From IMG/VR virus record IMGVR_UViG_3300043172_001413: a DNA stretch of 64,000 nucleotides, one strand, 5' to 3'. A program made the position numbers and the translations under genes. Within the stretch, counting starts at the first letter, position 1. Every line of letters starts with the position of its first letter. The notes beneath the pieces are model-generated. The model ran no database searches and was not told where the DNA came from. It saw only the letters and a program-made list of their open reading frames with translations. Source of the stretch: a virus. Shown in pieces: positions 168 to 23,755 of the stretch.

Positions 168-196
168 TTGACACAGCCCAATTTTTGAAGTATTAT
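168..196 (+). promoter_or_regulatory. near-consensus sigma70 promoter (TTGACA-17nt-TATTAT)
   Basis: ttgaca at 168-173, a 17-nt spacer, tattat at 191-196. Lies upstream of a short transcript and the tRNA array. Confidence 0.6.
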
Positions 197-204
197 ATAA
201 GTAT

Positions 205-470
205 TAATCTGTAAATTGAAGTTTGAAAAGAATTCAAAATTTAATGGGAAGAAAGATTATGACTCGGGAAACGAAGGCTCCACAAAACAGCACATTCAGG
301 TTTAAGCTATCGGTTAGCCTTAAACAGTTGTGTTTATCCTTTAGTATGCTCTATTCAGGAATTAGACTGCATACAGAGGCGGGGTCTATGGTGACTTAAA
401 GAGTCAGTAGTACATAAAAGGAAACCAGAAACCCTCGCCTCGAAAGAAGTGAGGGTTTTTTTATTATGGT
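205..470 (+). ncRNA. short promoter-to-terminator transcript, a candidate sRNA or a ~50-aa leader ORF
   Basis: Bounded by the promoter at 168-196 and a hairpin plus T-run (accctc...gagggttttttt) at about 431-462. Contains only a ~50-codon ORF starting at ATG 241. Confidence 0.3.
431..462 (+). terminator. intrinsic terminator (hairpin plus T-run)
   Basis: aaccctc gcctcgaaagaagt gagggtt followed by ttttttt. Confidence 0.5.
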
Positions 471-535: not shown

Positions 536-607
536 GGCTGTCTAGCTGAGACGGATTAGCAGTGGACCGAAAATCCACGGAGGGCAGTTCGATACTGTCG
601 GCAGCCA
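536..607 (+). tRNA. tRNA-like, possibly a degenerate tRNA-Phe(GAA) copy with C33
   Basis: Acceptor ggctgtc pairs with ggcagcc. A T-arm ggcag-ttcgata-ctgtc is present. The anticodon arm tgga-ccgaaaa-tcca resembles the next Phe gene but carries C33. D-arm is irregular. Confidence 0.35.
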
Positions 608-611
608 CCTT

Positions 612-684
<73 letters not shown>

Positions 685-698
685 TCTTTGAAATTTAC

Positions 699-782
699 GC
701 TGTTGTGGCGGAATTGGTATACGCGCTAGGTTCAGGACCTAGTGGGAGCAATCCCATGCTGGTTCAAGTCCAGTCAACAGCA
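699..782 (+). tRNA. tRNA-Leu (CAG), long variable arm
   Basis: Acceptor gctgttg pairs with caacagc. Anticodon arm ctagg-ttcagga-cctag. Long variable arm. T-arm ggttcaagtcc. Confidence 0.8.
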
Positions 783-851
783 TTAAAATAAACTGTTCAT
801 TAAATTAAGCTGTTTGTTAATAATGAACAAAGGAGAAAAGTGAACAAATAA

Positions 852-929
852 GGCGCTGTAACTCAGTCCGGTGAGAGTGACTCTCTGATAAGGAGTTGGT
901 CGAAAGTTCAAATCTTTCCAGCGCCACCA
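852..929 (+). tRNA. tRNA-Ile (GAU)
   Basis: ggcgctgtaactcagtccggt...actct-ctgataa-ggagt...cagcgcc a cca. CCA is encoded. Confidence 0.8.
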
Positions 930-954
930 GAAAGTAAAGTTCTTTTAAATAAAT

Positions 955-1041
955 GCGGATGTGGTGGAATTGGTATACACGCAAGGTTAAGGACCTTGTG
1001 GGAGCAATCTCGTGCTGGTTCAAGTCCAGTCATCCGCACCA
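955..1041 (+). tRNA. tRNA-Leu, anticodon reads AAG (unusual A34), long variable arm
   Basis: Paralog of the 699-782 gene. Acceptor gcggatg pairs with catccgc. Anticodon arm caagg-ttaagga-ccttg. CCA is encoded. Confidence 0.65.
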
Positions 1042-1042
1042 T

Positions 1043-1119
1043 GCGCCCTTAGCTCAGTTGGTAGCAGCAACGCCCTTTTAAGGCGTAGGTCATTGGTTCG
1101 ATCCCAATAGGGCGTACCA
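1043..1119 (+). tRNA. tRNA-Lys (UUU)
   Basis: gcgcccttagctcagttggtagcagca acgcc-cttttaa-ggcgt aggtc attgg-ttcgatc-ccaat agggcgt a cca. Confidence 0.75.
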
Positions 1120-1196
1120 TTTAATTTTGAAAGAAAAGAGGTTCAAGGTGAGGTTGAACTCATCGTTTTTTAAACGTTTCCGGTTTAAAAGTTTTC

Positions 1197-1268
1197 GGGT
1201 CTGTAGCCAAGTGGTAAGGCTTCCGGCTTTTAACCGGAATATCGCAAGTTCGATCCTTGCCAGGCCCA
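1197..1268 (+). tRNA. tRNA-Lys (UUU), second copy on a different scaffold
   Basis: gggtctgtagccaagtggtaaggc t tccgg-cttttaa-ccgga atatc gcaag-ttcgatc-cttgc caggccc a. Confidence 0.65.
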
Positions 1269-1278
1269 TTTTGTAAAC

Positions 1279-1355
1279 GCCTCCGTAGCTCAGTTGGTAG
1301 CAGCATCTGCCTCTTAAGCAGGGGGTCGTAGGTTCGAAACCTACCGGGGGTACCA
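1279..1355 (+). tRNA. tRNA-Lys (CUU)
   Basis: Paralog of the 1043-1119 gene. Anticodon arm tctgc-ctcttaa-gcagg. CCA is encoded. Confidence 0.7.
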
Positions 1356-1388
1356 TAAATTTGGACAGATTGACAAATAATAAAATAC

Positions 1389-1474
1389 GGAGAGATAGGT
1401 TAATTGGTAAATCAGCACCCTGCTAAGGTGCCGTCCGAAAGGACTTCCGAGTTCGAGTCTCGGTCTCTCCGCCA
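1389..1474 (+). tRNA. tRNA-Ser (GCU), long variable arm
   Basis: ggagagataggttaattggtaa...gcacc-ctgctaa-ggtgc, variable arm cgtccgaaaggact, T-arm tccgagttcgagtctcgg, tctctcc g cca. Confidence 0.8.
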
Positions 1475-1682
1475 TAAAGGATAAAAAGATGGACGCAACA
1501 AGTAAAGCAAAAGAGTGGCACACAAAAGAACAGGAACGGATCGCAAAACAAGGTTTCCGTAAAGAGAATGGCGGTCAGCTTGTAGGAGTAGTAACAGGAT
1601 GGGGAAGAAAAAAAAGACGAATAAACAGAAAGCCCTGGTTAAAAGGAAACCTTGTAACAGAGATTGCAAGAACTGTAACAGG

Positions 1683-1988
1683 TTAAGATGTTAAACGGAT
1701 GTCTTGGAGACCGGTCATATCTATCATGTCTTGTTCTTCATCCCATTCAAAAAGAAAAGAAGGAGGTTCTGGAATAGCTCGTTGTTTAAGTTCCCATATA
1801 AGGCGATGGACTTTTTGAGCTATGTACTCTATGTTAGGTTCGGAATAACCTTCGTCTGTGATAGTATTGTCTCTAACTCCAGGACCGTAAAGCATAAAAC
1901 CTCCTTTATATAAAGATAGTATGAAATTGATTGTTTGTCTGTGACGGTAGTCACATATGTTATAAAAAGTTAAGGGCGGTATGGCCAA
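1683..1988 (-). CDS. hypothetical protein encoded inside the tRNA array
   Basis: 101-aa ORF on the opposite strand, lying between tRNA-Ser and tRNA-Cys. Its annotated start overlaps the first nucleotides of the tRNA-Cys gene. Confidence 0.3.
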   Translation of the reverse strand: MAIPPLTFYNICDYRHRQTINFILSLYKGGFMLYGPGVRDNTITDEGYSEPNIEYIAQKVHRLIWELKQRAIPEPPSFLFEWDEEQDMIDMTGLQDIRLTS

Positions 1989-2048
1989 GTGGTAAGGCAG
2001 AAGTCTGCAAAACTTCTATCTCCAGTTCAAATCTGGATACCGCCTCCA
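1975..2048 (+). tRNA. tRNA-Cys (GCA)
   Basis: ggcggtatggccaagtggtaaggca gaagt-ctgcaaa-acttc tatc tccag-ttcaaat-ctgga taccgcc t cca. Confidence 0.8.
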
Positions 2049-2059
2049 AAATTCTTTGA

Positions 2060-2277
2060 AATAGAATAGTTGAGCCGGACCTACGCGCAGGATGTTTATC
2101 CTGTGAGGAAGCTCAGGTCACTACTGCTGAAGGAAGGAGATGAGAATCGCTGGCACTTCCGAGGGTGCAACTCCGAGTTCGGTATATGCGGGTGAGCAGC
2201 GCTGTGATTACCTGGTTGGAGGCTTAGACAAATGTAGGTATTGGAACAGAAACCTGGCTATGAGCTTAACTATTTAC
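2060..2277 (+). ncRNA. unassigned ORF-free structured segment inside the tRNA array
   Basis: About 215 nt with no ORF of 60 aa or more in any frame. Has several short inverted repeats (ccgag...ttcgg, acctgg...). No T-arm, so it is not a tRNA or tmRNA. Confidence 0.25.
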
Positions 2278-2363
2278 GGAGGGTTAGTATAATTGATAAT
2301 GCAGCGGTTTTGAAAGCCGCCGTCCGCAAGGGCTTACAGGTTTGAGTCCTGTACCCTCCGCCA
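2278..2363 (+). tRNA. tRNA-Ser (UGA), long variable arm
   Basis: ggagggttagtataattgataat gcggt-tttgaaa-gccgc, variable arm cgtccgcaagggctt, T-arm acaggtttgagtcctgt, accctcc g cca. Confidence 0.75.
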
Positions 2364-2437
2364 TAAATTAATGTTCTTTGAAATTTCTATTGTTATGAAG
2401 TCAGCACATTTTATTTGTAAAAGATTGTGAAGGTTAC

Positions 2438-2513
2438 GGTGTAGGTCGTCCAGTGGTCAGGGCCCCGGATTGTGGTTCCGGAGACGGGAGTTCAACTCTC
2501 CTCCTTCACCCCA
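2438..2513 (+). tRNA. tRNA-His (GUG) with G-1
   Basis: An extra 5' G precedes gtgtagg. Anticodon arm ccgga-ttgtggt-tccgg. T-arm gggag-ttcaact-ctcct. Acceptor 3' strand ccttcac, discriminator c, then cca. One acceptor-stem mismatch. Confidence 0.7.
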
Positions 2514-2539
2514 TCTTCTTTCAAATAAATGAGTTACAA

Positions 2540-2621
2540 GGGAGTACTGGGCATTGGTGAGCCCCCTTGACTGTAGATCAAACGCCTTCGGGCTGTGGTG
2601 GTTCAACTCCATCTGCTCCCA
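2540..2621 (+). tRNA. tRNA-Tyr (GUA), long variable arm
   Basis: gggagtactgggcattggtgagccc, anticodon arm cttga-ctgtaga-tcaaa, variable arm cgccttcgggctg, T-arm tggtggttcaactccatc, tgctccc a. Confidence 0.7.
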
Positions 2622-2715
2622 TTTGTCAATTATAACCGAGAGGCTACGGCTACGGAAAGAAATTGCCCATTTACGACCGTCCGGGGGGAAGAACCTGGTC
2701 TCGGTTTCCTTATCG

Positions 2716-2758
2716 ATTTGTAGAGGATTATAAATTATATCAAAATCCTCTACAAATC
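2716..2758 (+). other. perfect 14-bp stem-loop between tRNA-Tyr and tRNA-Ser
   Basis: atttgtagaggatt ataaattatatcaaa aatcctctacaaat. No trailing T-run, so it may be a processing or regulatory hairpin rather than a terminator. Confidence 0.5.
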
Positions 2759-2767
2759 AACTTTTCT

Positions 2768-2853
2768 GGAGGGTTAGTATAATCGCTAATACAGCAGTTT
2801 CGAAAGCTGCCGCCTGAAAGGGCTTATAGGTTGGAGTCCTATACCCTCCGCCA
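2768..2853 (+). tRNA. tRNA-Ser (CGA), long variable arm
   Basis: Paralog of the 2278-2363 gene. Anticodon arm gcagt-ttcgaaa-gctgc. accctcc g cca. Confidence 0.75.
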
Positions 2854-2854
2854 T

Positions 2855-2939
2855 GGAGGAGATCCCGAACGGTTAGGGAGCCGGTTGGAATCCGGTGGGC
2901 TGAAAGGCTCGGCAGGTTCGACTCCTGTCTCCTCCGCCA
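2855..2939 (+). tRNA. tRNA-Ser (GGA), long variable arm
   Basis: ggaggagatcccgaacggttaggga, anticodon arm gccgg-ttggaat-ccggt, variable arm gggctgaaaggctcg, T-arm gcaggttcgactcctgt, ctcctcc g cca. Confidence 0.75.
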
Positions 2940-3003: not shown

Positions 3004-4125
3004 TTGGAACTATTTATGGATATGGAAATTTATAATACCTGGAAGGGAATTAACGAATCACTCTCTTCTTATAAAAATTTCACTGCAATGCTCGATGAAA
3101 GACATACAGCCGGTTATACCCGGGGGGAAAGATTGAATACTTTCTATGTCTTGGGAAGATTCCTACTGGACGGCCACGGTAACTGCGGTTATGCTACTGA
3201 TTTTATCCCTGCAGAAAATATACCTGAATTTCCTAAAGTTGCTATGCATGATGTCTTCTGGCAAGTTATAAAAGACTGGCAGAAGAAAAAACAACCAGAT
3301 GTTTTAACAGATAAAGATATGAGAGCCTCGGATTTCAGCTATAGCAAGAATAAGCGACCTTTTCCGATCAGCATTAGTTTCGGGATGGAGAATATTATTC
3401 CTCCAGTTTCACTCCGATGTCCTCATTGTCAGAAAGGGTGGGCTATAGAAAACTGCCATGACGTAAAAAAAGTCAGCGGTGGGCGCTTAATCACTGAAGA
3501 CAGCCCTTTTATCGGGATAACCCTTGGGGAGCTACGTGAGGAATTCGGAAAGAGATCTGATGCAATGTATTATACCCATAATTTTATATACAATAATGGT
3601 GTAAAAAAGGATAATGTCAAGGAAGATTATGTTCTTATTGAGGGTGATAAGATCTCTTATGGAAAAGTTTACTACTATCACAGCGAGTGTCTTAGAGCCA
3701 GGCAAACCCTGGAATGTGAAGAGCACCGACATAATAATGGTGAAAATTATGAACAGTTAAACCTCGCTGGGAATATAGCTTGCGATGAATTTATTAAGTT
3801 GGAGCTTGAACTCACTGGAATAAATATTGTAGAGAAGAAAGGAAAGGGAGAAGTTCCCTATAATTATGAGGGCAGGCTTGGCGATTTCACTTTCAGGAGA
3901 GCCTGGTCTTACTGGGTAGTGCATGGAGATGTTCCTTTAAAACTTGCGAAAGAAATGTATTATGAAAGTGAGATTGGTCAAAAAACAGTGCGAGTAGCAG
4001 GTCATTGCGGTTGTCCTCGTCCGGAAGAGTGGGCACACGGTGGTTATGTTACTTCTTACCATATAGATAGCTGGAAAGGCTTGAAATTATTTGCAGACAC
4101 AATTAAGAATAATATGCTGGTGTAG
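3004..4125 (+). CDS. hypothetical Cys/His-rich protein (373 aa)
   Basis: Long uninterrupted ORF. The stop codon TAG overlaps the first nucleotides of the tRNA-Met gene. No recognisable domain. Confidence 0.5.
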   Translation: MELFMDMEIYNTWKGINESLSSYKNFTAMLDERHTAGYTRGERLNTFYVLGRFLLDGHGNCGYATDFIPAENIPEFPKVAMHDVFWQVIKDWQKKKQPDVLTDKDMRASDFSYSKNKRPFPISISFGMENIIPPVSLRCPHCQKGWAIENCHDVKKVSGGRLITEDSPFIGITLGELREEFGKRSDAMYYTHNFIYNNGVKKDNVKEDYVLIEGDKISYGKVYYYHSECLRARQTLECEEHRHNNGENYEQLNLAGNIACDEFIKLELELTGINIVEKKGKGEVPYNYEGRLGDFTFRRAWSYWVVHGDVPLKLAKEMYYESEIGQKTVRVAGHCGCPRPEEWAHGGYVTSYHIDSWKGLKLFADTIKNNMLV

Positions 4126-4191
4126 TTCAGTTGGCAGAACGTTGGAATCATAATCCAAAAGTCGGAGGTTCGATCCCTCTCACCAGCACCA
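4116..4191 (+). tRNA. tRNA-Met (CAU); a lysidine-modified Ile2 species cannot be excluded
   Basis: gctggtgtagttcagttggcagaacg ttgga-atcataa-tccaa aagtc ggagg-ttcgatc-cctct caccagc a cca. Confidence 0.8.
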
Positions 4192-4497
4192 TTTTTTAAA
4201 GGAGTACATTTTTTTAAGGAGTTCTGACAAAGAGGGGTAAACTATGAAGAATGAAAAGCAGAAAGAAATAGAAGTGAGAATATCTGCTAAACAATTAATA
4301 GATCATAAAAGATATGATGTATTTGAGAAAGGCGTATTTCATTTAAAGAAAAACAATCCAAATTTTAACTCAGATGATTATGATGTAATAATCAGGAAAA
4401 AAGAAATTAAATAATGCTGTAAGTTCAGTTGAATGAGAGTTTTTAAGATTTAACAAAGGAGGAAGCTATGCTATAATTACCTTAACAAGGAGTTATA

Positions 4498-5190: not shown

Positions 5191-5841
5191 ATGCACGACA
5201 GCAAAGATAGAATCGAGAGCTTTCGTGGCGAATATCGATTTCTCTCAAATTTCTGGTATGCAAAGACCGTCTACAAAGGAATTGAATTCCCTACGTCAGA
5301 GCATGCGTTTCAGGCTGCAAAATCTAATGATGAGCGCATACGGCGACTTTTCCTGACCTACGAGACACCGGGAGAGGCAAAACGACAGGGTCAGCTGATA
5401 GAGTGCCGGCCGAACTGGGATCTTATAAAAGTGGATGTCATGAACGCTATCTTATTTTCTAAGTTCTCAGATAATCACTTGATGGGGAAGCTTCTGGCAA
5501 CCGAGTATGTCGAATTAATCGAGGGCAATAACTGGGGCGATACCTTCTTCGGTGTCTGCAACGGTGAGGGTGAAAACTGGCTTGGTAGATTATTGATGAA
5601 TCTCCGTGCCTGGGAGTCAGAGTTTAGAAGATTAGACGGTGTTGTTATCGTTGAAATGGTACGGGATTTCCAGGTTAACGATGAAGAAATTATTACAGAG
5701 GGTGCCATAGGGACAATAAGATACGGAAACACTATTTATTTTCCTAAAGGAGTAATAAATCTACCCGAGGGAATAGCCCCTGAGTTTGTGCGCTATGATT
5801 TTGATAAGGATAATTGGAAGGGTCTGGTAAAGATAATATAA
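5191..5841 (+). CDS. NADAR (YbiA/DUF1768) domain protein, a predicted ADP-ribose-processing N-glycosidase
   Basis: N-terminal FRGEYRFLSNFW ... FPTSEHAFQAAK ... WDLIKVDVM matches the YbiA/NADAR signature. An extra ~70-aa C-terminal extension follows. Confidence 0.7.
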   Translation: MHDSKDRIESFRGEYRFLSNFWYAKTVYKGIEFPTSEHAFQAAKSNDERIRRLFLTYETPGEAKRQGQLIECRPNWDLIKVDVMNAILFSKFSDNHLMGKLLATEYVELIEGNNWGDTFFGVCNGEGENWLGRLLMNLRAWESEFRRLDGVVIVEMVRDFQVNDEEIITEGAIGTIRYGNTIYFPKGVINLPEGIAPEFVRYDFDKDNWKGLVKII

Positions 5842-8742: not shown

Positions 8743-9048
8743 ATGGGCAAACATCTCTGTGAAGTCTGTCATAAGAATGAAATTGTTGGGGTAGCATGTG
8801 TTCCGGGAATACCCTACAGTGCCGGGTACTGTGTTGAGTGCCTAAGAGCAAACGCTCATCCCTGGGATATTCTTGTAGGGCAGGTTGCCTGCATAGGGGG
8901 TTTGGATAAAGTTCATGGAGAGTTTGTGCAAATGGTTGAATGTACCTGTAAGCATCTTGATAAAACGCTGGAGCAGTTCAACGCAGAGGTCCAGCAGTCA
9001 ATAAAATCACTTGAGAAATATGAGGATTATGAAGACCCAGAAGAATAA
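8743..9048 (+). CDS. hypothetical Cys-rich protein (101 aa)
   Basis: ORF with CEVCH ... CVEC motifs. Confidence 0.4.
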   Translation: MGKHLCEVCHKNEIVGVACVPGIPYSAGYCVECLRANAHPWDILVGQVACIGGLDKVHGEFVQMVECTCKHLDKTLEQFNAEVQQSIKSLEKYEDYEDPEE

Positions 9049-9610
9049 AATAGAGATTACCAAGGTTAATCCCGATTTTTGGAAATTATCCGATGGAGTC
9101 GATAAAGTCTATTTTGAAAAGAAAACTGATCTCTTGCGATTAAAGCGGGAAATGAAAGACCAAGGATTTACGACATTAAAACCTTTTCTGAAAAAGACAA
9201 AAAACCGTTATTGGAAGGACTGGGGAATTGGTGCGGTTAATTACCTTAAAGGCCCTCCCATCGACGTTGAAGAATGGGAAGAAAAATACGCTCAAGATTA
9301 TAAACCGCCTGAGAAAAAGGAACCGGAACCAGAAAAAGAAAAGTTAAAATTAGTATATAGCGTTTATGACTTGTCAGAAAAGCAGTTTGAATGGTTTGAA
9401 AAGAATGGCCTTCTCTGCGAGGATCTTAAAAGTTGCTGGTTATCGAAAGATGGGATTTTAGATATTATCTATGACAGCGGTCACGGGCCTGATTTAGAAG
9501 AAATTCCCAGGAAATGGTGGGTAGGGTCGAGGTTTAAACAGACAGAGATAGCTCGTTTTGAAGAGCATTGGAAGGAAAACCAAGAAAATGAGGTTTTATG
9601 GGAAGCATAA
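9011..9610 (+). CDS. hypothetical protein (199 aa)
   Basis: ORF. K/E-rich. No recognisable domain. Confidence 0.4.
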   Translation: MRNMRIMKTQKNKIEITKVNPDFWKLSDGVDKVYFEKKTDLLRLKREMKDQGFTTLKPFLKKTKNRYWKDWGIGAVNYLKGPPIDVEEWEEKYAQDYKPPEKKEPEPEKEKLKLVYSVYDLSEKQFEWFEKNGLLCEDLKSCWLSKDGILDIIYDSGHGPDLEEIPRKWWVGSRFKQTEIARFEEHWKENQENEVLWEA

Positions 9611-9703
9611 GCAGTATTTAAGGCACAGAGGATAAAATGATTGAAGATATAATTTATTGGATAAAATGGTTTATAAAAACTTTATGGAAGTGCTTTTTTT
9701 AAT

Positions 9704-9789
9704 GGCCAGGTGGCGGAATTGGTAGACGCTACAGATTTAAGATCTGTTATCCGTAGGGTGTCCGAGTTCGAGTCTCGGTCTGGCTACCA
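9704..9789 (+). tRNA. tRNA-Leu (UAA), long variable arm
   Basis: ggccaggtggcggaattggtagacgc t acaga-tttaaga-tctgt, variable arm tatccgtagggtgt, T-arm ccgag-ttcgagt-ctcgg, tctggct a cca. Confidence 0.75.
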
Positions 9790-9803
9790 TTAAGGAAATA
9801 ACA

Positions 9804-10049
9804 ATGACTGAAGCAGATAGACTGGTTGAAGTAACAAATGAATTAGCTGATATCAATGATTCTTTCGAGTTTTTCAAATATCTTGATATTAGAATAATTT
9901 TGATAGAATTTCTGTTCCTCTGGTTTGTAGTCACTGCAATGTTTTGCCTTTATGAAGGTGATATAAGTGATGTTCTTATGAGCCAGGTAATGTTTTTTGT
10001 AAATACAGTTGAGTCTATTAAAGACTCGATATCTAATTTAAAGTGGTGA
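9804..10049 (+). CDS. hypothetical membrane protein (81 aa)
   Basis: ORF with a hydrophobic segment ILIEFLFLWFVVTAMFCL. Confidence 0.3.
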   Translation: MTEADRLVEVTNELADINDSFEFFKYLDIRIILIEFLFLWFVVTAMFCLYEGDISDVLMSQVMFFVNTVESIKDSISNLKW

Positions 10050-11025: not shown

Positions 11026-11630
11026 TTAAAATGGAGCCTTCTGTGTGGAAGATTAGGAAGATTGTTTCTAAAGGTGATTATAATTATGCTGTTGTTCCAG
11101 AACATCCTTTTGCTATAAAAAATGGCTATGTATTGGAACATCGTATAGTTATGGAAAATCATCTGGGTAGGCTTCTTAATCCCAATGAGCTGGTTCATCA
11201 TAAAGATGAACAAACTAAACATAATGATATCTTAAATCTCGAAATTAAGATAAAGGGCGAGCATGAAAGATACCATCAATTGCAGAAAGGACGGTTATGG
11301 GTAAGTCTTAAGTGCCCTCAGTGTAAAAAGATTTTTGAGAGGGAAAGAAGACTGACTTTTCTTTCAAAAGGAGATTCTTGTACATGTTGTTCTCACAGAT
11401 GTAAGGGTCTTTTTAATAGGAAAATACAGCTCAAAGGAAGAACTGCAGAAGTGGAGCAGGCTATATCGGAGAACGTCGTAAGAGAGTACCGTAGGTATTC
11501 ACACGATAATTCCGAGCAAACCTTAAACAAGGGGATGCGTAGAGGCCATACGCCTGCCGTCTGAAATGATGAAGAAATGGTCCAGCCAGCAAGCCTATAA
11601 TAGGTGGTTATGGAAACATGATGCTGGATG
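11026..11630 (+). mobile_element. group I intron (605 nt) with an HNH homing-endonuclease ORF, inserted in the tRNA anticodon loop
   Basis: The 3' portion (gataattccgagcaaacc ... gaaatggtccagcc ... g) parallels the 3' core of the ORF-less intron at 23189-23385 (gaattcaggggaacc ... gagatagtccaggcc). Ends in G before the 3' exon. I could not assign the P1 pairing confidently. Confidence 0.55.
11031..11564 (+). CDS. intron-encoded HNH homing endonuclease
   Basis: YVLEHRIVMENHLGRLLNPNELVHHKDEQTKHNDILNLEIKIKGEHERYH. Homologous to the ORFs at 22562-23164 and 13944-14627. The six-frame ORF call from 10902 is an artefact that runs through two tRNA sequences. Confidence 0.6.
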   Translation: MEPSVWKIRKIVSKGDYNYAVVPEHPFAIKNGYVLEHRIVMENHLGRLLNPNELVHHKDEQTKHNDILNLEIKIKGEHERYHQLQKGRLWVSLKCPQCKKIFERERRLTFLSKGDSCTCCSHRCKGLFNRKIQLKGRTAEVEQAISENVVREYRRYSHDNSEQTLNKGMRRGHTPAV

Positions 11631-12161: not shown

Positions 12162-12235
12162 GTCCCTGTAGCTCAGTTGGATAGAGCGCAAGTTTCCTAA
12201 ACTTGAGGTCGAAGGTTCGATTCCTTTCAGGGATA
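12162..12235 (+). tRNA. tRNA-Arg (CCU)
   Basis: gtccctgtagctcagttggatagagcg caagt-ttcctaa-acttg aggtc gaagg-ttcgatt-ccttt cagggat a. No encoded CCA. Confidence 0.75.
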
Positions 12236-13943: not shown

Positions 13944-14627
13944 ATGGGTATGGCAAAGAAGAAGCTCTTCGAGATTGATAAAGATAGCATTGTTAAGGCC
14001 ACAAAAGGTGGCTATTATTATTGCACGACTACTCCTCCACATCCCTATGGTGAAAAGCGCGATGATAGAAAAAAGAAATACATTTATTATCATAGAGCAC
14101 TTTTAGAGCAGAAGCTGGGCAGATATCTGAAATCTGAGGAGCAAGCAGACCATAAAGACGGTAATAAAGAGCACAATACCTCTTCAAATCTTGTATTATT
14201 AGTCCGCGGGCCGCATCAGAAGAGTCACGCTGAAAGAGGAAATCATTTCTGGAAGAAATCTCCTCGAAATAAACCTGGCAGGAAAGGTGCACGGAATGTC
14301 TTGGCAAAGTTTATTGAAGGTAGTGGTATTTTCATAGAAAAATGGATCCCAGTGAAAAAACTCCGAGAACCAAAGAAAAAACAAGCTCAGCGTGTAATAG
14401 CAAAATTTTCAGAAGAAAAGACTGCTGAGATATTATACCAGGCTTTTGTTAGCGGGCGTGAAGATCCGGCATATAAAAAGATGCCTAAATTGTTTCCTGA
14501 TTATAATAGTAATCAGGCGGATGATGCCACAGATTATTTAATGAGAGCTTTTCAGAAGAAACATTTTAATTTAAGTAAGGGGATTTTAAAAAGAGTCCAA
14601 AATAAAATTTTAGCAGGGATTACATAA
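13944..14627 (+). CDS. HNH endonuclease (homing-endonuclease family)
   Basis: YYHRALLEQKLGRYLKSEEQADHKDGNKEHNTSSNLVLLVRGPHQKSHAE. Homologous to the ORFs at 11031-11564 and 22562-23164. Confidence 0.6.
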   Translation: MGMAKKKLFEIDKDSIVKATKGGYYYCTTTPPHPYGEKRDDRKKKYIYYHRALLEQKLGRYLKSEEQADHKDGNKEHNTSSNLVLLVRGPHQKSHAERGNHFWKKSPRNKPGRKGARNVLAKFIEGSGIFIEKWIPVKKLREPKKKQAQRVIAKFSEEKTAEILYQAFVSGREDPAYKKMPKLFPDYNSNQADDATDYLMRAFQKKHFNLSKGILKRVQNKILAGIT

Positions 14628-19309: not shown

Positions 19310-20356
19310 TTATTTTACAAGATATTTTGAGCTGATTGTTTCTGCGAATTCTGGCCCTTTTTCATAATCATCAATAAAGATTTGCTTATTATGCCTCGTA
19401 CCGTCTTTATCGCTCCCATACCACTGTGTACGCCAGTAACCCGCCACTCTTATTTTATTTTTTAATTTCCATAGACCGACTCCTCCAGCTTTGCGGATTT
19501 GTTCCATGTCATTGTTTTTATCTTGGATACCGTCACCTATAACGATGATTCTATGTGTATTTGCTTTTTTTGCCCGTTTTTCTAATTTCCTTCTCTTTGA
19601 AGATGAGGTAATATTTTTAAGTCTTTCCCTGTAGTTTATAGGTTCATAGTTTGTCAAGTGGGGTCTTTTACTAGTAATATATAACAGGACATTGAAAGCG
19701 TAAGCAGTAAATTCTTCCAGATAATCAATATTATTTGCAGCATCGTAATTTGCCAGTTCTTCTAATTCCGGTTCAATTTTAGTTTTCATATAGTACCGGA
19801 GCTGGCTCTGTAATTTTCCGGGATTGATCTCTACGTGGAAATAGAAACTTGTGTCATTGAACGGTATTGCCGGAGTAGGTTTAAGAAGTGAACAAGCCAT
19901 CACCCTTATTTGTTTATAATCACCGAAATCACGGAGGTATATATAGAACCCCTGCACTGGGACTCTTATACCGCTGATATCATTGATAGAGAACAACCCG
20001 GGATCTATCGCTACGTAGATTTCTCTGAAGGGTGATTTCAGGAAATAAGAATCGATGTTTAATGAAGTCTGAGCCAACCGGGCTGATAATTCAGGTGTGA
20101 CATAATAAATTTTCTCACAGCTCTGTTTCATGTGATAAAGATGAAACAGGATGTTCGTGTAACTTACAATGTTAACATTATCGAGATTAAACGCGGAATC
20201 TATTATCTTGGTAAAGAATTCATCGTAAGTTGGATCAGGGCCAGAGCTGCGTATTTCTGGTGTGAATACACCAGGGCACCTTGCGTCGAGATATCTCCAC
20301 GCACTTTCATAATGGGTTTTATTAAACATCTTTTCTTTTGCCATAATTACTTCCAT
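19310..20356 (-). CDS. hypothetical protein (348 aa)
   Basis: Long ORF with no recognisable domain. An AT-rich divergent promoter region follows at 20357-20540. Confidence 0.5.
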   Translation of the reverse strand: MEVIMAKEKMFNKTHYESAWRYLDARCPGVFTPEIRSSGPDPTYDEFFTKIIDSAFNLDNVNIVSYTNILFHLYHMKQSCEKIYYVTPELSARLAQTSLNIDSYFLKSPFREIYVAIDPGLFSINDISGIRVPVQGFYIYLRDFGDYKQIRVMACSLLKPTPAIPFNDTSFYFHVEINPGKLQSQLRYYMKTKIEPELEELANYDAANNIDYLEEFTAYAFNVLLYITSKRPHLTNYEPINYRERLKNITSSSKRRKLEKRAKKANTHRIIVIGDGIQDKNNDMEQIRKAGGVGLWKLKNKIRVAGYWRTQWYGSDKDGTRHNKQIFIDDYEKGPEFAETISSKYLVK

Positions 20357-20540: not shown

Positions 20541-21167
20541 ATGATTGAACCACTGTTTTTCTTCTGTTATTACGCCTATTTATTGGGCGACCTCGAAAAA
20601 GCTCGGATGTATTTTTCTGTGATCCGAGAAGAATACTCTGCTGTCGGAACTCCAAATTCTTTAAAAGAACACCAGTTTCTTGAATTGAAAAAAATCAAAG
20701 AAGCTATCACTACTGGTAATATTTCCCGAAGCAAATGGCTGGATGAAACTGCTCCCGGACCACCCCGGTCATCTGATATAAAGATAAAGCAAGCTGAGCT
20801 GGTCAAGAGAATCCATACAGAGGGCTTAGAGCAGCTTAAGGAGATCCTGCAAGATGATATCTATCTCTACAATATAGAGCATCCTTGTGGCTCCTACGGG
20901 ACTGTAGACATGGTTTATATGGGTAAGAATACTATTTATCCTCTGGAAGTGAAAAGAGGCCGCGGAGAGCATGATTTGATTGGTCAGATCAGCAAGTATG
21001 ACCTGCATCACCGGTTACAGTTGCATTATAAGCACTATGAGTATGTCCGATCCGTAACGATATGCAATTCTTATGACCCGTTCACGATTCAGGAATTGCG
21101 AACCATGGGTGTTCTTCCTTTGAATTACTCCCTGAATAAGGAAGATATCAGGATTGAAGCTTTATGA
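20541..21167 (+). CDS. hypothetical protein, possibly a PD-(D/E)xK-fold nuclease
   Basis: GTVDMVYMGKNTIYPLEVKRGRG contains a D...E.K arrangement. Weak. Confidence 0.35.
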   Translation: MIEPLFFFCYYAYLLGDLEKARMYFSVIREEYSAVGTPNSLKEHQFLELKKIKEAITTGNISRSKWLDETAPGPPRSSDIKIKQAELVKRIHTEGLEQLKEILQDDIYLYNIEHPCGSYGTVDMVYMGKNTIYPLEVKRGRGEHDLIGQISKYDLHHRLQLHYKHYEYVRSVTICNSYDPFTIQELRTMGVLPLNYSLNKEDIRIEAL

Positions 21168-21250
21168 GAAATTATGGCTTTCTCCGAAGTCCCCAATTTT
21201 ATTAAAGTGGTGGATCGGTGAATTTAAAGCTTAAGTAATAAAAATAAAAG

Positions 21251-21279
21251 TTGACTTTTGTAACTTTTGGTGGTATATT
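21251..21279 (+). promoter_or_regulatory. near-consensus sigma70 promoter (TTGACT-17nt-TATATT)
   Basis: ttgact at 21251-21256, a 17-nt spacer, tatatt at 21274-21279. Confidence 0.6.
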
Positions 21280-21285
21280 ATTATT

Positions 21286-21471
21286 ACCTTTCAAATACAA
21301 ATAGATAAAATAGGATATTAAAAATGTTAACAATACTCAGCCTTCGTTCCCCCATTCTTTTTGGGGATAACCCGCAGCCAAGGAACTATAATTCGTTGGG
21401 GGACTGAGTATTGTCCAAAAACTAATCAGAAACCAAAACCCCGGCGAACGAAAGTTTACCGGGGTTTTTTT
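21286..21471 (+). ncRNA. candidate ~185-nt sRNA with its own promoter and terminator
   Basis: Long-range stem caatactcag (21331-21340) pairs with ctgagtattg (21404-21413), enclosing ccccc/ggggg hairpins. Ends at the terminator ccccgg cgaacgaaagttta ccgggg ttttttt (21439-21471). Only a ~27-codon ORF. Confidence 0.45.
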
Positions 21472-21475
21472 ATAC

Positions 21476-21550
21476 TGGGGTGTAGCCCAGCGGTAAGGCG
21501 CTTGATTCTGGTTCAAGAGATCGTAGGTTCGACCCCTACCACCCCAGCCA
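21476..21550 (+). tRNA. tRNA-Gln (CUG)
   Basis: tggggtgtagcccagcggtaaggc g cttga-ttctggt-tcaag agatc gtagg-ttcgacc-cctac cacccca g cca. U1-A72 and G73 as in bacterial tRNA-Gln. Confidence 0.75.
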
Positions 21551-21566
21551 TAAAATTGGAGTAGAT

Positions 21567-21767
21567 ATGGACAAATTTGAAAAAGTAATCGAAGATTTAA
21601 AAGAACAACTCAGTAAAATAACTTACAACGGTGGTGATTTATCAGATGTCGGAAATGAGATCGGTTTAGTTATCGGTAAACATTTAAAAGAGGAGTCAGG
21701 ATACGAGAAAGAAGATTTTATTAGTGGACTTAACCATGGCCTTTCTTTGATTGATGGGACTCATTAA
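21567..21767 (+). CDS. hypothetical protein (66 aa)
   Basis: ORF between two tRNAs, with an upstream ggag. Confidence 0.3.
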   Translation: MDKFEKVIEDLKEQLSKITYNGGDLSDVGNEIGLVIGKHLKEESGYEKEDFISGLNHGLSLIDGTH

Positions 21768-21772
21768 CATAT

Positions 21773-21849
21773 CGGGATGTAGCGCAGTCTGGTAGCGCAC
21801 CTCGTTCGGGGCGAGGGGGTCGCTGGTTCAATTCCAGTCATCCCGACCA
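21773..21849 (+). tRNA. tRNA-Pro (CGG)
   Basis: cgggatgtagcgcagtctggtagcgca cctcg-ttcgggg-cgagg gggtc gctgg-ttcaatt-ccagt catcccg a cca. Confidence 0.8.
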
Positions 21850-21864
21850 TAAAAGGAAATTATT

Positions 21865-22158
21865 ATGTTACGAAGAAATAGATATAGAAAAATACCGCCC
21901 AACCCGAATAAAAGAAAAAGGGAACGGCGATCAGTACCACTGGAAAGATCAGTACATATTGACGGAGAGCGCTGGGGCTGGGAATATGTTGAAGGATTTA
22001 ATCATGAAGACGGTATAGATAGAAGTAAAATAAAAGTACTTTCTCCTGATAATAAATTCTTTGTAAAAGAAATAAAAGATACTCAACTTTATGGAGATGT
22101 AATTATTCCGAGTACGGTGAAACAGTTTATAATCGACAAATTGTTAGTAGGTGCATAA
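21865..22158 (+). CDS. hypothetical protein (97 aa)
   Basis: ORF. Confidence 0.35.
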   Translation: MLRRNRYRKIPPNPNKRKRERRSVPLERSVHIDGERWGWEYVEGFNHEDGIDRSKIKVLSPDNKFFVKEIKDTQLYGDVIIPSTVKQFIIDKLLVGA

Positions 22159-22258
22159 TGAAATTAATAGACATGATAAGGGATAATAAAAAAGCGAGAT
22201 TCTCTTTTTACTAAGAATACATATGGAGATGATAAAAAAGGAGAAAGAAATACATGAA

Positions 22259-22337
22259 CGGGGTGTGGCCTAGTGTGGCTTAAGGCGCTTGGCTGGGGGC
22301 CAAGAGATCGGGGATTCAAATTCCTCCACCCCGACCA
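22259..22337 (+). tRNA. tRNA-Pro (GGG)
   Basis: cggggtg tg gcct-agtgtggctta-aggc g cttgg-ctggggg-ccaag agatc gggga-ttcaaat-tcctc caccccg a cca. Confidence 0.7.
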
Positions 22338-22433
22338 ATTCTTTGAAATACGGTGGAGATGATTTTTCCCACAGTAGTGGGGCTGATCCAGAGCGTCAAG
22401 AAGTGCTATATCTTATTTTCATCTCCACCATAC

Positions 22434-22507
22434 AGATAGGTACGCAAGAGGCACGCGGACGGTCTGTTAAACCGTTGATCTGGGTTCGAGTCCCAGCCTA
22501 TCTGCCA
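22434..22507 (+). tRNA. tRNA-Asn (GUU)
   Basis: agataggtacgcaagaggcacgcg g acggt-ctgttaa-accgt tgat ctggg-ttcgagt-cccag cctatct g cca. Confidence 0.75.
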
Positions 22508-22561
22508 AAAATACTTGCTCTGTCGAACACTATGTGTTAATTTATAACACGGAGGTTCGAT

Positions 22562-23164
22562 ATGAATAGAAAAGAGGAAGCAAGACAATTAAGGAGAGCT
22601 GGAAAATCTCTAAATGATATAGCTCGATCAGTCGGGGCAGCAAAGAGTTCTATTAGCTTGTGGGTAAGAGATATCCCTCAACCTGAAAAGTACACAACAG
22701 AATACCGGCATACACGGAAGTTAAAGAGGTTAAAGAAATTAAAGGAAGAGAGAGAAAAAAATAAAAGAGTACGGAAAGAGAGAATTATTAGCGGTGACGG
22801 AAGATGGATGGTACCCACTCCTCCGGGTTATAAGGGAAAGACTTATATAAAAGGTCTTTATGTTTATGAGCACCGTTTAATAATGGAGAAAAAACTTGGA
22901 AGACTCTTAAAAATAAATGAAATTGTACACCATAAAGATGAAGATAAATTAAACAATGATGATGAAAATCTTGAATTGAAAACTAGAGGAGGCCATACAA
23001 GTCATCATCATAAGTCAAAAGAATTTGTTGAATTAAAATGCTCTTTTTGTAAAAGAACTTTTTTGAAAGAAAAGAGGAATTATAAAGTAAAAGTGAAACA
23101 GGGTCAGAAGAAATTTTATTGTACTAGATCCTGTGTAGCAAAGTCACAAAAAATTGGAGAGTAG
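22562..23164 (+). CDS. free-standing HNH homing endonuclease
   Basis: YVYEHRLIMEKKLGRLLKINEIVHHKDEDKLNNDDENLELKTRGGHTSHHH. N-terminal HTH-like RQLRRAGKSLNDIARSVGAAKSSISLWV. The stop codon TAG overlaps the first nucleotides of the intron-containing tRNA-Asn. Confidence 0.65.
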   Translation: MNRKEEARQLRRAGKSLNDIARSVGAAKSSISLWVRDIPQPEKYTTEYRHTRKLKRLKKLKEEREKNKRVRKERIISGDGRWMVPTPPGYKGKTYIKGLYVYEHRLIMEKKLGRLLKINEIVHHKDEDKLNNDDENLELKTRGGHTSHHHKSKEFVELKCSFCKRTFLKEKRNYKVKVKQGQKKFYCTRSCVAKSQKIGE

Positions 23165-23426
23165 CTCAATGGCAGAGCAGCTGGCTGTCGGGTTGGCAGC
23201 CCTTACAGGAAACTGTAAGGTGAAAACTGGGTGAATTCAGGGGAACCTAAGTCCTTTAAGGATATGGCAATCGTGAGCGAAGCCTTGAAAGAGGAACGTG
23301 CAGAGACTTATAGCGCCCAGCACCTAAAGCGTAAAGCTATGGTGATGAGATAGTCCAGGCCTCCGGGAAATCGGGGGGATAACTGTAACCAGCGGGTTGG
23401 AGGTTCGAGCCCTCTCTCTCCAGCCA
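23155..23426 (+). tRNA. tRNA-Asn (GUU) interrupted by a group I intron
   Basis: 5' exon tggagagtagctcaatggcagagca gctgg ctgt (23155-23188). 3' exon taa ccagc gggtt ggagg-ttcgagc-cctct ctctcca g cca (23386-23426). U1-A72 and G73 as in E. coli tRNA-Asn. Spliced anticodon loop ctgttaa. Confidence 0.75.
23189..23385 (+). mobile_element. group I intron (197 nt, Azoarcus tRNA-Ile-like IC3 type), no ORF
   Basis: A candidate P1 pairs exon ggctgt with the intron guide sequence gcagcc, giving a U-G pair at the 5' splice site. The intron ends in G. The core ggaacctaag...gatatggcaatcgtgagcgaag...gtgcagagacttatagcgcccagcacctaaagcgtaaagctatgg...atagtccagg closely resembles the Azoarcus pre-tRNA-Ile intron core, as recalled from memory. 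Confidence 0.7.
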
Positions 23427-23512
23427 TTTACATCGGGGTGAGTCGGAAACTCAGATATCTCAGAATCGAAATAATTCTGGTGCATGTCTCATTTCTGAGA
23501 GACCCCGACCAT

Positions 23513-23589
23513 CGGGGCGTAGCGCAGTATGGTAGCGCACCTGGCCTGGGACCAGGGGGTCGTCTGTTCAAATCAGACCGTCCCGACCA
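23513..23589 (+). tRNA. tRNA-Pro (UGG), with an unusual C33
   Basis: cggggcgtagcgcagtatggtagcgca cctgg-cctggga-ccagg gggtc gtctg-ttcaaat-cagac cgtcccg a cca. Paralog of the 21773-21849 gene. Confidence 0.65.
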
Positions 23590-23679
23590 TTTACGGGAGA
23601 TAAGCGGGGCGGAGTTCCAGAGTGGTAATTTCCGGATAAATACTACTTTATTCTCTGCAAGCGCACTCCCACCTTTTAC

Positions 23680-23755
23680 GGGCCCGTGGCGAAGTGGTTT
23701 AACGCATGAGGTTTTGGTCCTCACATCCCTGGTTCGATTCCAGGCGGGCTTTCCA
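23680..23755 (+). tRNA. tRNA-Gln (UUG)
   Basis: gggcccgtggcgaagtggtttaacgca tgagg-ttttggt-cctca catc cctgg-ttcgatt-ccagg cgggctt t cca. Two G-U pairs at the acceptor end. Confidence 0.6.

Follow-up and report, generated by a model that had tools for sequence, protein, structure and literature searches.

A probable leader-peptide attenuator in front of the Gln/Pro/Asn tRNA operon of a huge phage

The stretch of DNA analysed here (the window, 64,000 nucleotides (nt) of the IMG/VR virus record IMGVR_UViG_3300043172_001413) contains a short transcription unit with its own promoter and its own terminator immediately upstream of a transfer RNA (tRNA) gene for Gln, and the question raised by this locus is what such a unit is doing in front of a phage tRNA operon. 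In an earlier note, made from the sequence of the window, it was described as a candidate small RNA (sRNA) with no coding sequence. In our study the unit, named element 1 here, was found to carry a short open reading frame (ORF) whose codons match the anticodons of the tRNAs encoded behind it. Sequence comparison and folding models suggest that element 1 is probably a ribosome-mediated leader-peptide attenuator, which would gate the tRNA operon and sense the decoding capacity that the operon itself supplies. A second unit of like design (element 2) was found before another tRNA cluster near the start of the window.

Most of the physical description given in the earlier note was found to be correct. 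The consensus promoter is present and also has an extended -10 TG at 21271-21272 (the spacer ends in TGg); there are 66 promoter-like matches in the window against 53.6 +/- 6.1 in shuffled sequences, so that a single match is not above chance. Transcription is predicted to start at about 21286, which gives a promoter-to-terminator unit of about 186 nt up to 21471, in line with the length of about 185 nt first estimated. The GC-rich terminator with its T-run was also found (21439-21464 and seven T residues to 21471; -19.1 kcal/mol, GAAA loop); a simple terminator scan had missed it because of an internal mismatch. The long-range stem is real and perfect but measures 11 base pairs (bp; 21330-21340 with 21404-21414) and not the 10 bp given before, and three further pairs lie beyond a bulge. 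The C5 and G5 runs occupy 21350-21354 and 21398-21402, with a G4 run at 21363-21366, and the neighbouring tRNA-Gln(CUG) starts at 21476, only 4 nt past the T-run. The complete unit folds at -54 kcal/mol (z = -4.19), a value which none of 200 shuffled sequences reached. What does not stand is the statement that little room is left for a protein, as a 27-codon ORF with an AGGA Shine-Dalgarno motif spans the structured part of the unit and is conserved as an ORF in relatives (Table 1).

Relatives were collected through the 208-residue protein encoded just upstream (20541-21167), for which 107 homologues, nearly all from metagenomes, were found at 43-100% identity, and 80 loci were retrieved. With a profile search the element was located behind the neighbour gene in about 20 loci, its 3' half being more conserved. 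Reading of the sequences together with a scan for short ORFs rich in Asn, Pro and Gln (N, P and Q) gave 18 distinct versions from related huge-phage metagenome contigs, which fall into 7-9 groups at 70-80% nucleotide identity, and the conservation of the region on which the sRNA proposal also depended is thereby borne out. Three contigs with an identical neighbour protein are 100% identical across the element and hence uninformative. All 18 versions have a near-consensus sigma-70 promoter (9.5-11.5 of 12, with a 17-bp spacer in 17), an intact short ORF for a peptide of 20-35 residues and a strong terminator. The start signals are of two kinds: a purine-rich motif resembling a Shine-Dalgarno sequence precedes the ATG by 6-10 nt in 11 versions (the close relatives have AGGA, GAGG or AAGG at the same distance as the AGGA of the window), and five divergent versions (L024, L026, L027, L037 and L040) are leaderless, the ATG lying 6-7 nt past the -10 box; L019 and L028 lack a clear Shine-Dalgarno-like motif. 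A Gln/Pro/Asn tRNA cluster was found downstream in every relative carrying element 1. In 15 of the 18 the next tRNA begins 4-22 nt past the T-run; in the remaining three, terminator and tRNA are separated by a short ORF or by a second element copy. In these 15 there is no room for a promoter in between, and the first tRNA would therefore have to be transcribed by read-through of the terminator.

The codon content of the leader corresponds to the tRNAs which follow it. With default settings ARAGORN called six downstream tRNAs, all for Gln, Pro or Asn, and the regulatory codon run taken together with the CCC at 21351-21353 covers all six of the Gln/Pro/Asn anticodons encoded there. The number of N/P/Q per 10 residues is 6 in the leader of the window and 7-10 in its relatives. 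In the long ORFs of the phage these amino acids account for 11.9% of the total, and among 12,432 windows of 10 residues (12.9k codons) only 8 reach at least 6 N/P/Q and none reaches at least 8. Their order varies between the versions (NNPNQPNQP, NPNNPQPNQP, PNNNNPQQP, NNPNPQPQP, NNNQPNNPQP) and the composition is kept; synonymous codons replace one another for Pro, Gln and Asn, and the Arg following the run is encoded by AGG, AGA, CGG or CGT. In the peptides of the closer relatives a Q-P-R-N..S-L-G motif recurs.

The 3' end of the same ORF can base-pair with the terminator's 5' arm. The segment TTCGTTGGGG, which encodes the last peptide residues, can form a duplex of -17.6 kcal/mol with CCCCGGCGAA (21439-21448), and this complementarity between regions 2 and 3 is present in 18 of 18 versions at -13 to -23 kcal/mol, exceeding every same-locus control window in 13 of them. 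On a MAFFT alignment, in which the divergent versions are out of register, 88.4% of the cells of the 2:3 helix are paired as against 33-55% with the partner slid; one pair has changed on both sides and five compatible changes are one-sided. The covariation across related contigs that had been proposed as a check was found in the terminator helix as well, where 88.5% of the cells are paired, five pairs have changed on both sides and the score was not attained in any of 500 shuffles. In L028, L037, L040 and L024 the terminator is a different one; the ORF end differs too and is still complementary, and the C-terminal residues shift along with it (in L028 the terminator arms are GCCCTCATCCCAG and CTGGAATGAGGGC, and CTGGGAT in region 2 faces ATCCCAG). 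In L021a the C-terminus is frameshifted and the nucleotide motif TTCGTTGGGG is kept. From this dependence on the terminator and from the frameshift it follows that the 'SLG' of the peptide is dictated by the RNA, the N/P/Q run being kept for its codons. The opposing 1:2 pairing, in which the 5' part of the ORF engages the stop-codon region and part of region 2, is detectable in 16 of the 18; the divergent versions form it with different sequences, and in relatives the 5' part includes N/P codons, for example CCCCAAT.

These findings weigh on the possibility that the conserved product is a functional Asn/Pro/Gln-rich micropeptide followed by an ordinary leaky terminator, the tRNAs being obtained through constitutive read-through. 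Such a peptide would account for the conservation of the ORF with its start signals and for the motif recurring in the closer relatives. It would not account for an N/P/Q order shuffled between lineages at a constant composition, for C-terminal residues which follow the terminator as RNA complementarity and not peptide function would require, or for L021a, where the frame is lost and the nucleotides are retained. Moreover, element 2 encodes an unrelated peptide with the same RNA logic and with codons that match its own tRNA cluster. We consider this explanation unlikely.

The antiterminator was then considered as a function of ribosome position, by folding the nascent RNA without region 4 (as far as the terminator loop) while a ribosome footprint was set at each codon in turn. 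In the RNA of the window without a ribosome, the long stem and the inner hairpin sequester region 2 and leave region 3 free. Region 1 would here be an anti-antiterminator and possibly also a pause hairpin, and in the model the pairing of CCAAGGAA helps to sequester region 2; this inner helix (21378-21385 with 21392-21399) is weakly conserved, with 63.5% of the alignment cells paired. The segment CTGAGTATTGT forms the 3' arm of the long stem and takes in the stop codon of the leader. With the A-site at codons 10-19 the full 10-bp 2:3 helix forms (-16.5 kcal/mol for the fold), with 8 pairs at codon 20, whereas from codon 22 to the stop the ribosome covers region 2 and region 3 becomes free for the terminator. 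In 18 of 18 versions the last stall position allowing the antiterminator is the end of the N/P/Q run, and N/P/Q make up 54% of the codons inside the stall range that permits it as compared to 18% outside. Between the stop codon and the terminator stem there are 18-32 nt, and a terminating ribosome therefore does not block the hairpin. The conserved Arg codon (21381-21383 in the window) is the last stall position still permitting the antiterminator.

Taken as an attenuator, element 1 may be expected to work in the following manner. Transcription would begin at the sigma-70 promoter and a ribosome would translate the 27-codon leader. When Asn, Pro and Gln codons are decoded fast, the ribosome would reach the last codons or the stop and cover region 2, so that regions 3 and 4 are left to form the terminator and transcription ends with the release of a leader RNA of about 186 nt. 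When aminoacyl-tRNA for Asn, Pro or Gln is scarce, the ribosome would stall in or before the N/P/Q run, covering region 1 and exposing region 2; the exposed TTCGTTGGGG would pair with CCCCGGCGAA, no terminator would form and RNA polymerase would enter the tRNA-Gln gene and the Gln/Pro/Asn cluster behind it. In the absence of translation, region 1 would sequester region 2 and termination would be the default. The net outcome would be a demand-driven, homeostatic expression of the phage tRNAs.

A number of observations weigh against this interpretation of element 1. The leader of the window has N/P/Q at 7 of its 27 codons, which is fewer than in its relatives, and the operon also contains an intron-containing tRNA-Thr and small ORFs. 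An ORF lies between attenuator and tRNAs in L005, in L027/L145 and in L021a. The strict covariation of the 2:3 helix is modest, and the observed paired fraction is reached by 7 of 500 shuffles. The minimum free energy (MFE) fold of the whole transcript with a masked ribosome always retains the terminator; as the terminator is always the thermodynamic minimum, the model rests on co-transcriptional kinetics, as it does for the classical attenuators. Finally, the ribosome-free fold without region 4 already favours the antiterminator in 11 of the 18 versions, and hence the untranslated default may differ among relatives and be set by the order of folding.

Table 1. Features of the two units and of the tRNA genes behind them (positions in the window)
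Feature	Position	Strand	Details
Element 1, sigma-70-type promoter	21251-21279	+	TTGACT (21251-21256), 17 nt, TATATT (21274-21279)
Element 1, Shine-Dalgarno motif	21312-21315	+	AGGA, 8 nt 5' of ATG
Element 1, leader-peptide ORF	21324-21407	+	27 codons, MLTILSLRSPILFGDNPQPRNYNSLGD, stop TGA; spans the structured part of the unit
Element 1, regulatory codon run	21369-21392	+	AAC CCG CAG CCA AGG AAC TAT AAT (N P Q P R N Y N)
Element 1, region 1	21330-21343	+	5' arm of the long-range stem; pairs with 21400-21414 in the MFE fold
Element 1, local partner of region 2	21378-21385	+	CCAAGGAA (Pro-Arg-Asn codons); pairs with 21392-21399 in the ribosome-free fold
Element 1, region 2	21392-21414	+	antiterminator strand TTCGTTGGGG (21392-21401) and CTGAGTATTGT (21404-21414)
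Element 1, region 3	21439-21449	+	terminator 5' arm CCCCGGCGAAC; alternative partners region 2 or region 4
Element 1, region 4	21454-21471	+	terminator 3' arm GTTTACCGGGG (21454-21464) and T7 (21465-21471)
Controlled operon	21476-23755	+	tRNAs Gln(CUG), Pro(CGG), Pro(GGG), Asn(GUU), intron-containing Thr(UGU), Pro(UGG), Gln(UUG)
Element 2, attenuator unit (candidate)	168-462	+	non-homologous to element 1, like design
Element 2, promoter	168-196	+	TTGACA-17-TATTAT
Element 2, leader ORF	259-399	+	46 codons, MTRETKAPQNSTFRFKLSVSLKQLCLSFSMLYSGIRLHTEAGSMVT
Element 2, region 2	376-389	+	
Element 2, terminator	432-462	+	stem 432-455 and T7 456-462; GAAA loop as in element 1
tRNA cluster behind element 2	536-2939	+	15 tRNAs: Phe, Phe, Leu, Ile, Leu, Lys x3, Ser, Cys, Ser, His, Tyr, Ser, Ser

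The same arrangement was found a second time in element 2, whose sequence is unrelated to that of element 1. The segment GAGGCGGGG near the end of its ORF can form a duplex of -18.2 kcal/mol with the terminator arm CCCTCGCCTC, an energy attained by 0.5% of control windows, and the switch point is codon 37, the end of the run FRFKLSVSLKQLCLSFSMLYSGIRLH. A 26-codon run of the leader covers 13 of the 13 anticodons of the tRNA cluster behind it, as 0.04% of background windows of 26 codons do, the boundaries of this run having been picked after inspection; at the length of the whole leader (46 codons) full coverage is found in 0.36% of background windows. Each of the six Leu codons occurs once in the run, and the phage encodes five tRNA-Leu species. 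Element 2 also has relatives. The locus L084 holds a near-identical copy. The copy in L149 (about 4065-4350) is divergent, its flanking protein being only 45% identical; the promoter is still present, the ORF has 47 codons and its codons cover 12 of the 13 anticodons. Its terminator arm is changed (GGCCTCACCTC) with a matching change in region 2 (GGGTGAGGTC), and at -18.8 kcal/mol the pairing between region 2 and the terminator beats all 1,479 control windows. A leader ORF, enrichment in cognate codons, an intrinsic terminator and a predicted antiterminator which depends on ribosome position were thus found in element 1, in element 2 and in the L149 copy.

A scan of the window and of neighbour-gene loci for terminators at most 160 nt upstream of any tRNA returned the types of elements 1 and 2 and, besides these, one weak hairpin without a leader. 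The spacer between the element 2 terminator and tRNA-Phe (66-73 nt; 463-535 in the window, about 4350-4415 in L149) is conserved between distant copies. It could serve in processing, or it could carry a weak internal promoter (TTAACT-18-GATTAT), and the latter would count against an attenuator at this second site. The homologues of the ORF at 3004-4125 were mostly non-syntenic and without tRNAs, so that L084 and L149 alone were useful for comparison, and the ORF at 9011-9607 had almost no homologues. Beyond the start of the window, on its upstream side, the DNA encodes a protein and no further tRNAs.

With both units in hand, the proposal of a trans-acting sRNA can be weighed, that is, of a structured RNA of about 186 nt that pairs with other transcripts and is a neighbour of tRNA genes only incidentally. 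The discrete promoter and terminator, the stable and conserved fold and the predicted terminated RNA of about 186 nt do belong to such a picture, and released attenuator RNAs are known to act in trans elsewhere, as is rnTrpL (PMC6614838). The sRNA, however, leaves aside a conserved translatable ORF with a Shine-Dalgarno or leaderless start, as well as the close spacing of 4-22 nt between T-run and tRNA in 15 of 18 versions. Conservation follows the codon composition and the pairing that competes with the terminator; the linker from stop to terminator (21415-21438 in the window) is the least conserved part, and no conserved single-stranded seed was seen. The same design with another codon set, matched to another tRNA cluster, recurs in element 2, and Rfam gave no sRNA match above threshold. 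A cis-acting attenuator fits these data better, and we regard an sRNA function as the primary role of element 1 as highly improbable; it is possible, by analogy with rnTrpL (PMC6614838), that the released leader RNA has a secondary role in trans.

An element which works without translation, by binding a protein or uncharged tRNA (TRAP-like or T-box-like) or as hairpins serving only the processing or stability of the tRNA precursor, is just as improbable, since the existence of the alternative pairings whatever reads them, and a place directly 5' of a tRNA that could suit processing, are outweighed by the lack of any T-box or other riboswitch in Rfam even at E <= 10, by the conserved ORF, start signals and frame with the switch point at the end of the codon run in 18 of 18 versions, and by a codon-anticodon correspondence in two independent units that it would leave unexplained.

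The leader-peptide attenuator, which we favour for element 1, can be compared with the known systems. In trpL, hisL, thrL, ilvL/ivbL, pheL and leuL, as in element 1, a promoter-proximal ORF is rich in the regulatory codons. These enterobacterial leaders also share the four regions predicted for it, with 1:2, 2:3 and 3:4 pairings, the intrinsic terminator just before the regulated genes, the stall codons whose occupation frees region 2 and a leader transcript of 140-190 nt. The thr and ilv leaders mix several amino acids and are multivalent. On the other hand, the enterobacterial leaders regulate biosynthetic enzymes, whereas element 1 stands before tRNA genes, so that the sensed molecule and the product would be of the same class; further, element 1 is viral and its set of codons follows from the anticodons of the tRNA array behind it. 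The proposed mechanism is of the trp/his/thr/ilv type, the differences being the regulated product (tRNAs), the viral setting and the anticodon-defined codon set.

The nearest case in purpose may be the pheM leader of pheST in E. coli, by which a component of translation, Phe-tRNA synthetase, is attenuated in response to its cognate charged tRNA. That system differs from element 1 in that the product is a synthetase, a single amino acid is sensed and the setting is cellular. T-box riboswitches likewise sense the status of a tRNA and switch between terminator and antiterminator before translation-related genes, but they bind uncharged tRNA directly and without translation, whereas the interpretation of element 1 given here needs translation. 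To our knowledge T-boxes do not regulate tRNA genes, and the T-box covariance model gave no match at E <= 10 in 21100-21600. The five divergent versions whose ATG lies 6-7 nt past the -10 box recall the leaderless polycysteine short ORFs of mycobacteria, which are described as Cys-responsive attenuators that lie at the 5' end of the mRNA and sense how particular codons are decoded (bioRxiv 10.1101/834739). The mycobacterial ORFs control Cys-related protein genes in the cell, and the abstract describes no intrinsic terminator/antiterminator switch before tRNA genes (10.1101/834739). The rnTrpL RNA of Sinorhizobium is an attenuator-derived sRNA with a demonstrated trans role (PMC6614838); its terminated leader is a discrete small transcript, as the RNA predicted for element 1 would be, and nothing points to a trans role in the present case.

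In Rfam no family was found for either element at gathering thresholds or at E <= 10. The best sub-threshold matches were to leader-peptide attenuators, which counts in favour of the present interpretation; those of element 1 scored 21.1 bits for His_leader RF00514 (threshold 49), 16.0 for Trp_leader RF00513 (41) and 13.7 for Thr_leader RF00506 (55), and the best for element 2 was Phe_leader RF01859 with 22.4 bits (threshold 55). The few matches at E <= 10 that span both leader and terminator of element 1 were to these three leader families and, likewise below threshold, to a few sRNAs. These weak matches are apparently driven mostly by the terminator, and the two elements are not members of these leader sequence families. 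A search of full-text literature, from which most subscription journals are absent, gave no description of leader-peptide attenuators in front of tRNA operons, whether of phages or of cells.

The window belongs to a very large phage-like contig, and the 208-residue neighbour protein occurs on a contig of 512 kilobases (kb). The first 24 kb of the window hold 26 tRNA genes with HNH endonuclease ORFs interspersed. Within the controlled operon, small ORFs and an HNH ORF are likewise interspersed, and tRNA-Thr(UGU) (23155-23426, +) is called only when introns are allowed, its anticodon loop being split by a 197-nt group I intron (Rfam Intron_gpI at 23178-23377, 77.8 bits). An HNH_3 endonuclease ORF (22562-23164) lies directly upstream of this tRNA and outside the intron. 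A tRNA-Arg(CCU) that matches the leader Arg codon at 21381-21383 is encoded at 12162-12235, outside the controlled cluster. At least four HNH-family endonuclease ORFs separate single tRNA genes (Leu x3, Arg) between 5873 and 14627 (+), which suggests heavy homing-endonuclease traffic in this tRNA region, and an ORF with a NADAR domain is present at 5191-5841.

The 208-residue neighbour gene (+ strand) has no Pfam match. In the alignment of its homologues D123, E136 and K138 are invariant, a pattern that resembles the motif of PD-(D/E)xK nucleases. It is adjoined by a divergent ORF of 348 residues (19310-20356, -) with a Pfam match to the AcrVA2-like family (PF26125), and this pairing is also present in L144, a related huge phage on a 389-kb contig. 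L144 encodes at 14353-14426 a tRNA with the anticodon CUA (amber suppressor), which hints at TAG recoding in relatives; the leader copy L021a, from the same phage, ends with TAG, and a protein of this phage also occurs on a 469-kb contig. In L145, a 442-kb relative, a Cas12f1-like_TNB (TnpB-like) ORF at 8913-9959 follows an RHH ORF and adjoins the 208-residue homologue, and a tRNA-like gene whose anticodon region carries an insertion of about 30 nt (about 11200-11390, the same as about 3700-3890 in L027) lies just upstream of tRNA-Gln and is not called by ARAGORN at default settings.

Outside the metagenome loci the yield was small. GenBank phage records gave no relative of the locus and matched tRNA-Gln alone. 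In IMG/VR no relatives were found by the neighbour protein or by the exact stem pattern, and a degenerate pattern of regions 2 and 3 gave 52 matches, about the chance expectation, none of which fit the profile of the element. Among GTDB genomes three short mis-binned contigs were the only matches and gave no clue to the host, and within the window no paralogous copies of element 1 were seen by sequence.

Why phages carry tRNAs, and what use they make of them, is a long-running question; among the proposed answers are that these tRNAs compensate for codon usage, replace host tRNAs that have been degraded or help to evade anticodon nucleases. Beyond the single locus, we lean slightly towards the general view that huge phages govern their tRNA arrays by leaders that act as codon test-strips, sampling the codons read by the very tRNAs under control. 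A tRNA set would then be made only when decoding slows, for example when the host tRNAs run low, are cut by defence nucleases or cannot keep up with the codon demand of the phage. If this is true, the range of leader-peptide attenuation, known from amino-acid biosynthesis, would come to include tRNA genes and viruses. For annotation, it is a warning that a promoter, a structure and a terminator without a long ORF beside tRNAs need not mean an sRNA. A search rule for phage and cellular tRNA arrays can also be drawn from it: a short ORF followed by a terminator and a tRNA, the codons of the ORF matching the anticodons. The leaders, being portable and about 190 nt long, would offer a directly testable handle. 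Viral tRNA genes would gain a new regulatory layer, a feedback loop in which the sensed molecule is also the product, and the phage would be measuring the decoding capacity of the infected cell and topping it up on demand.

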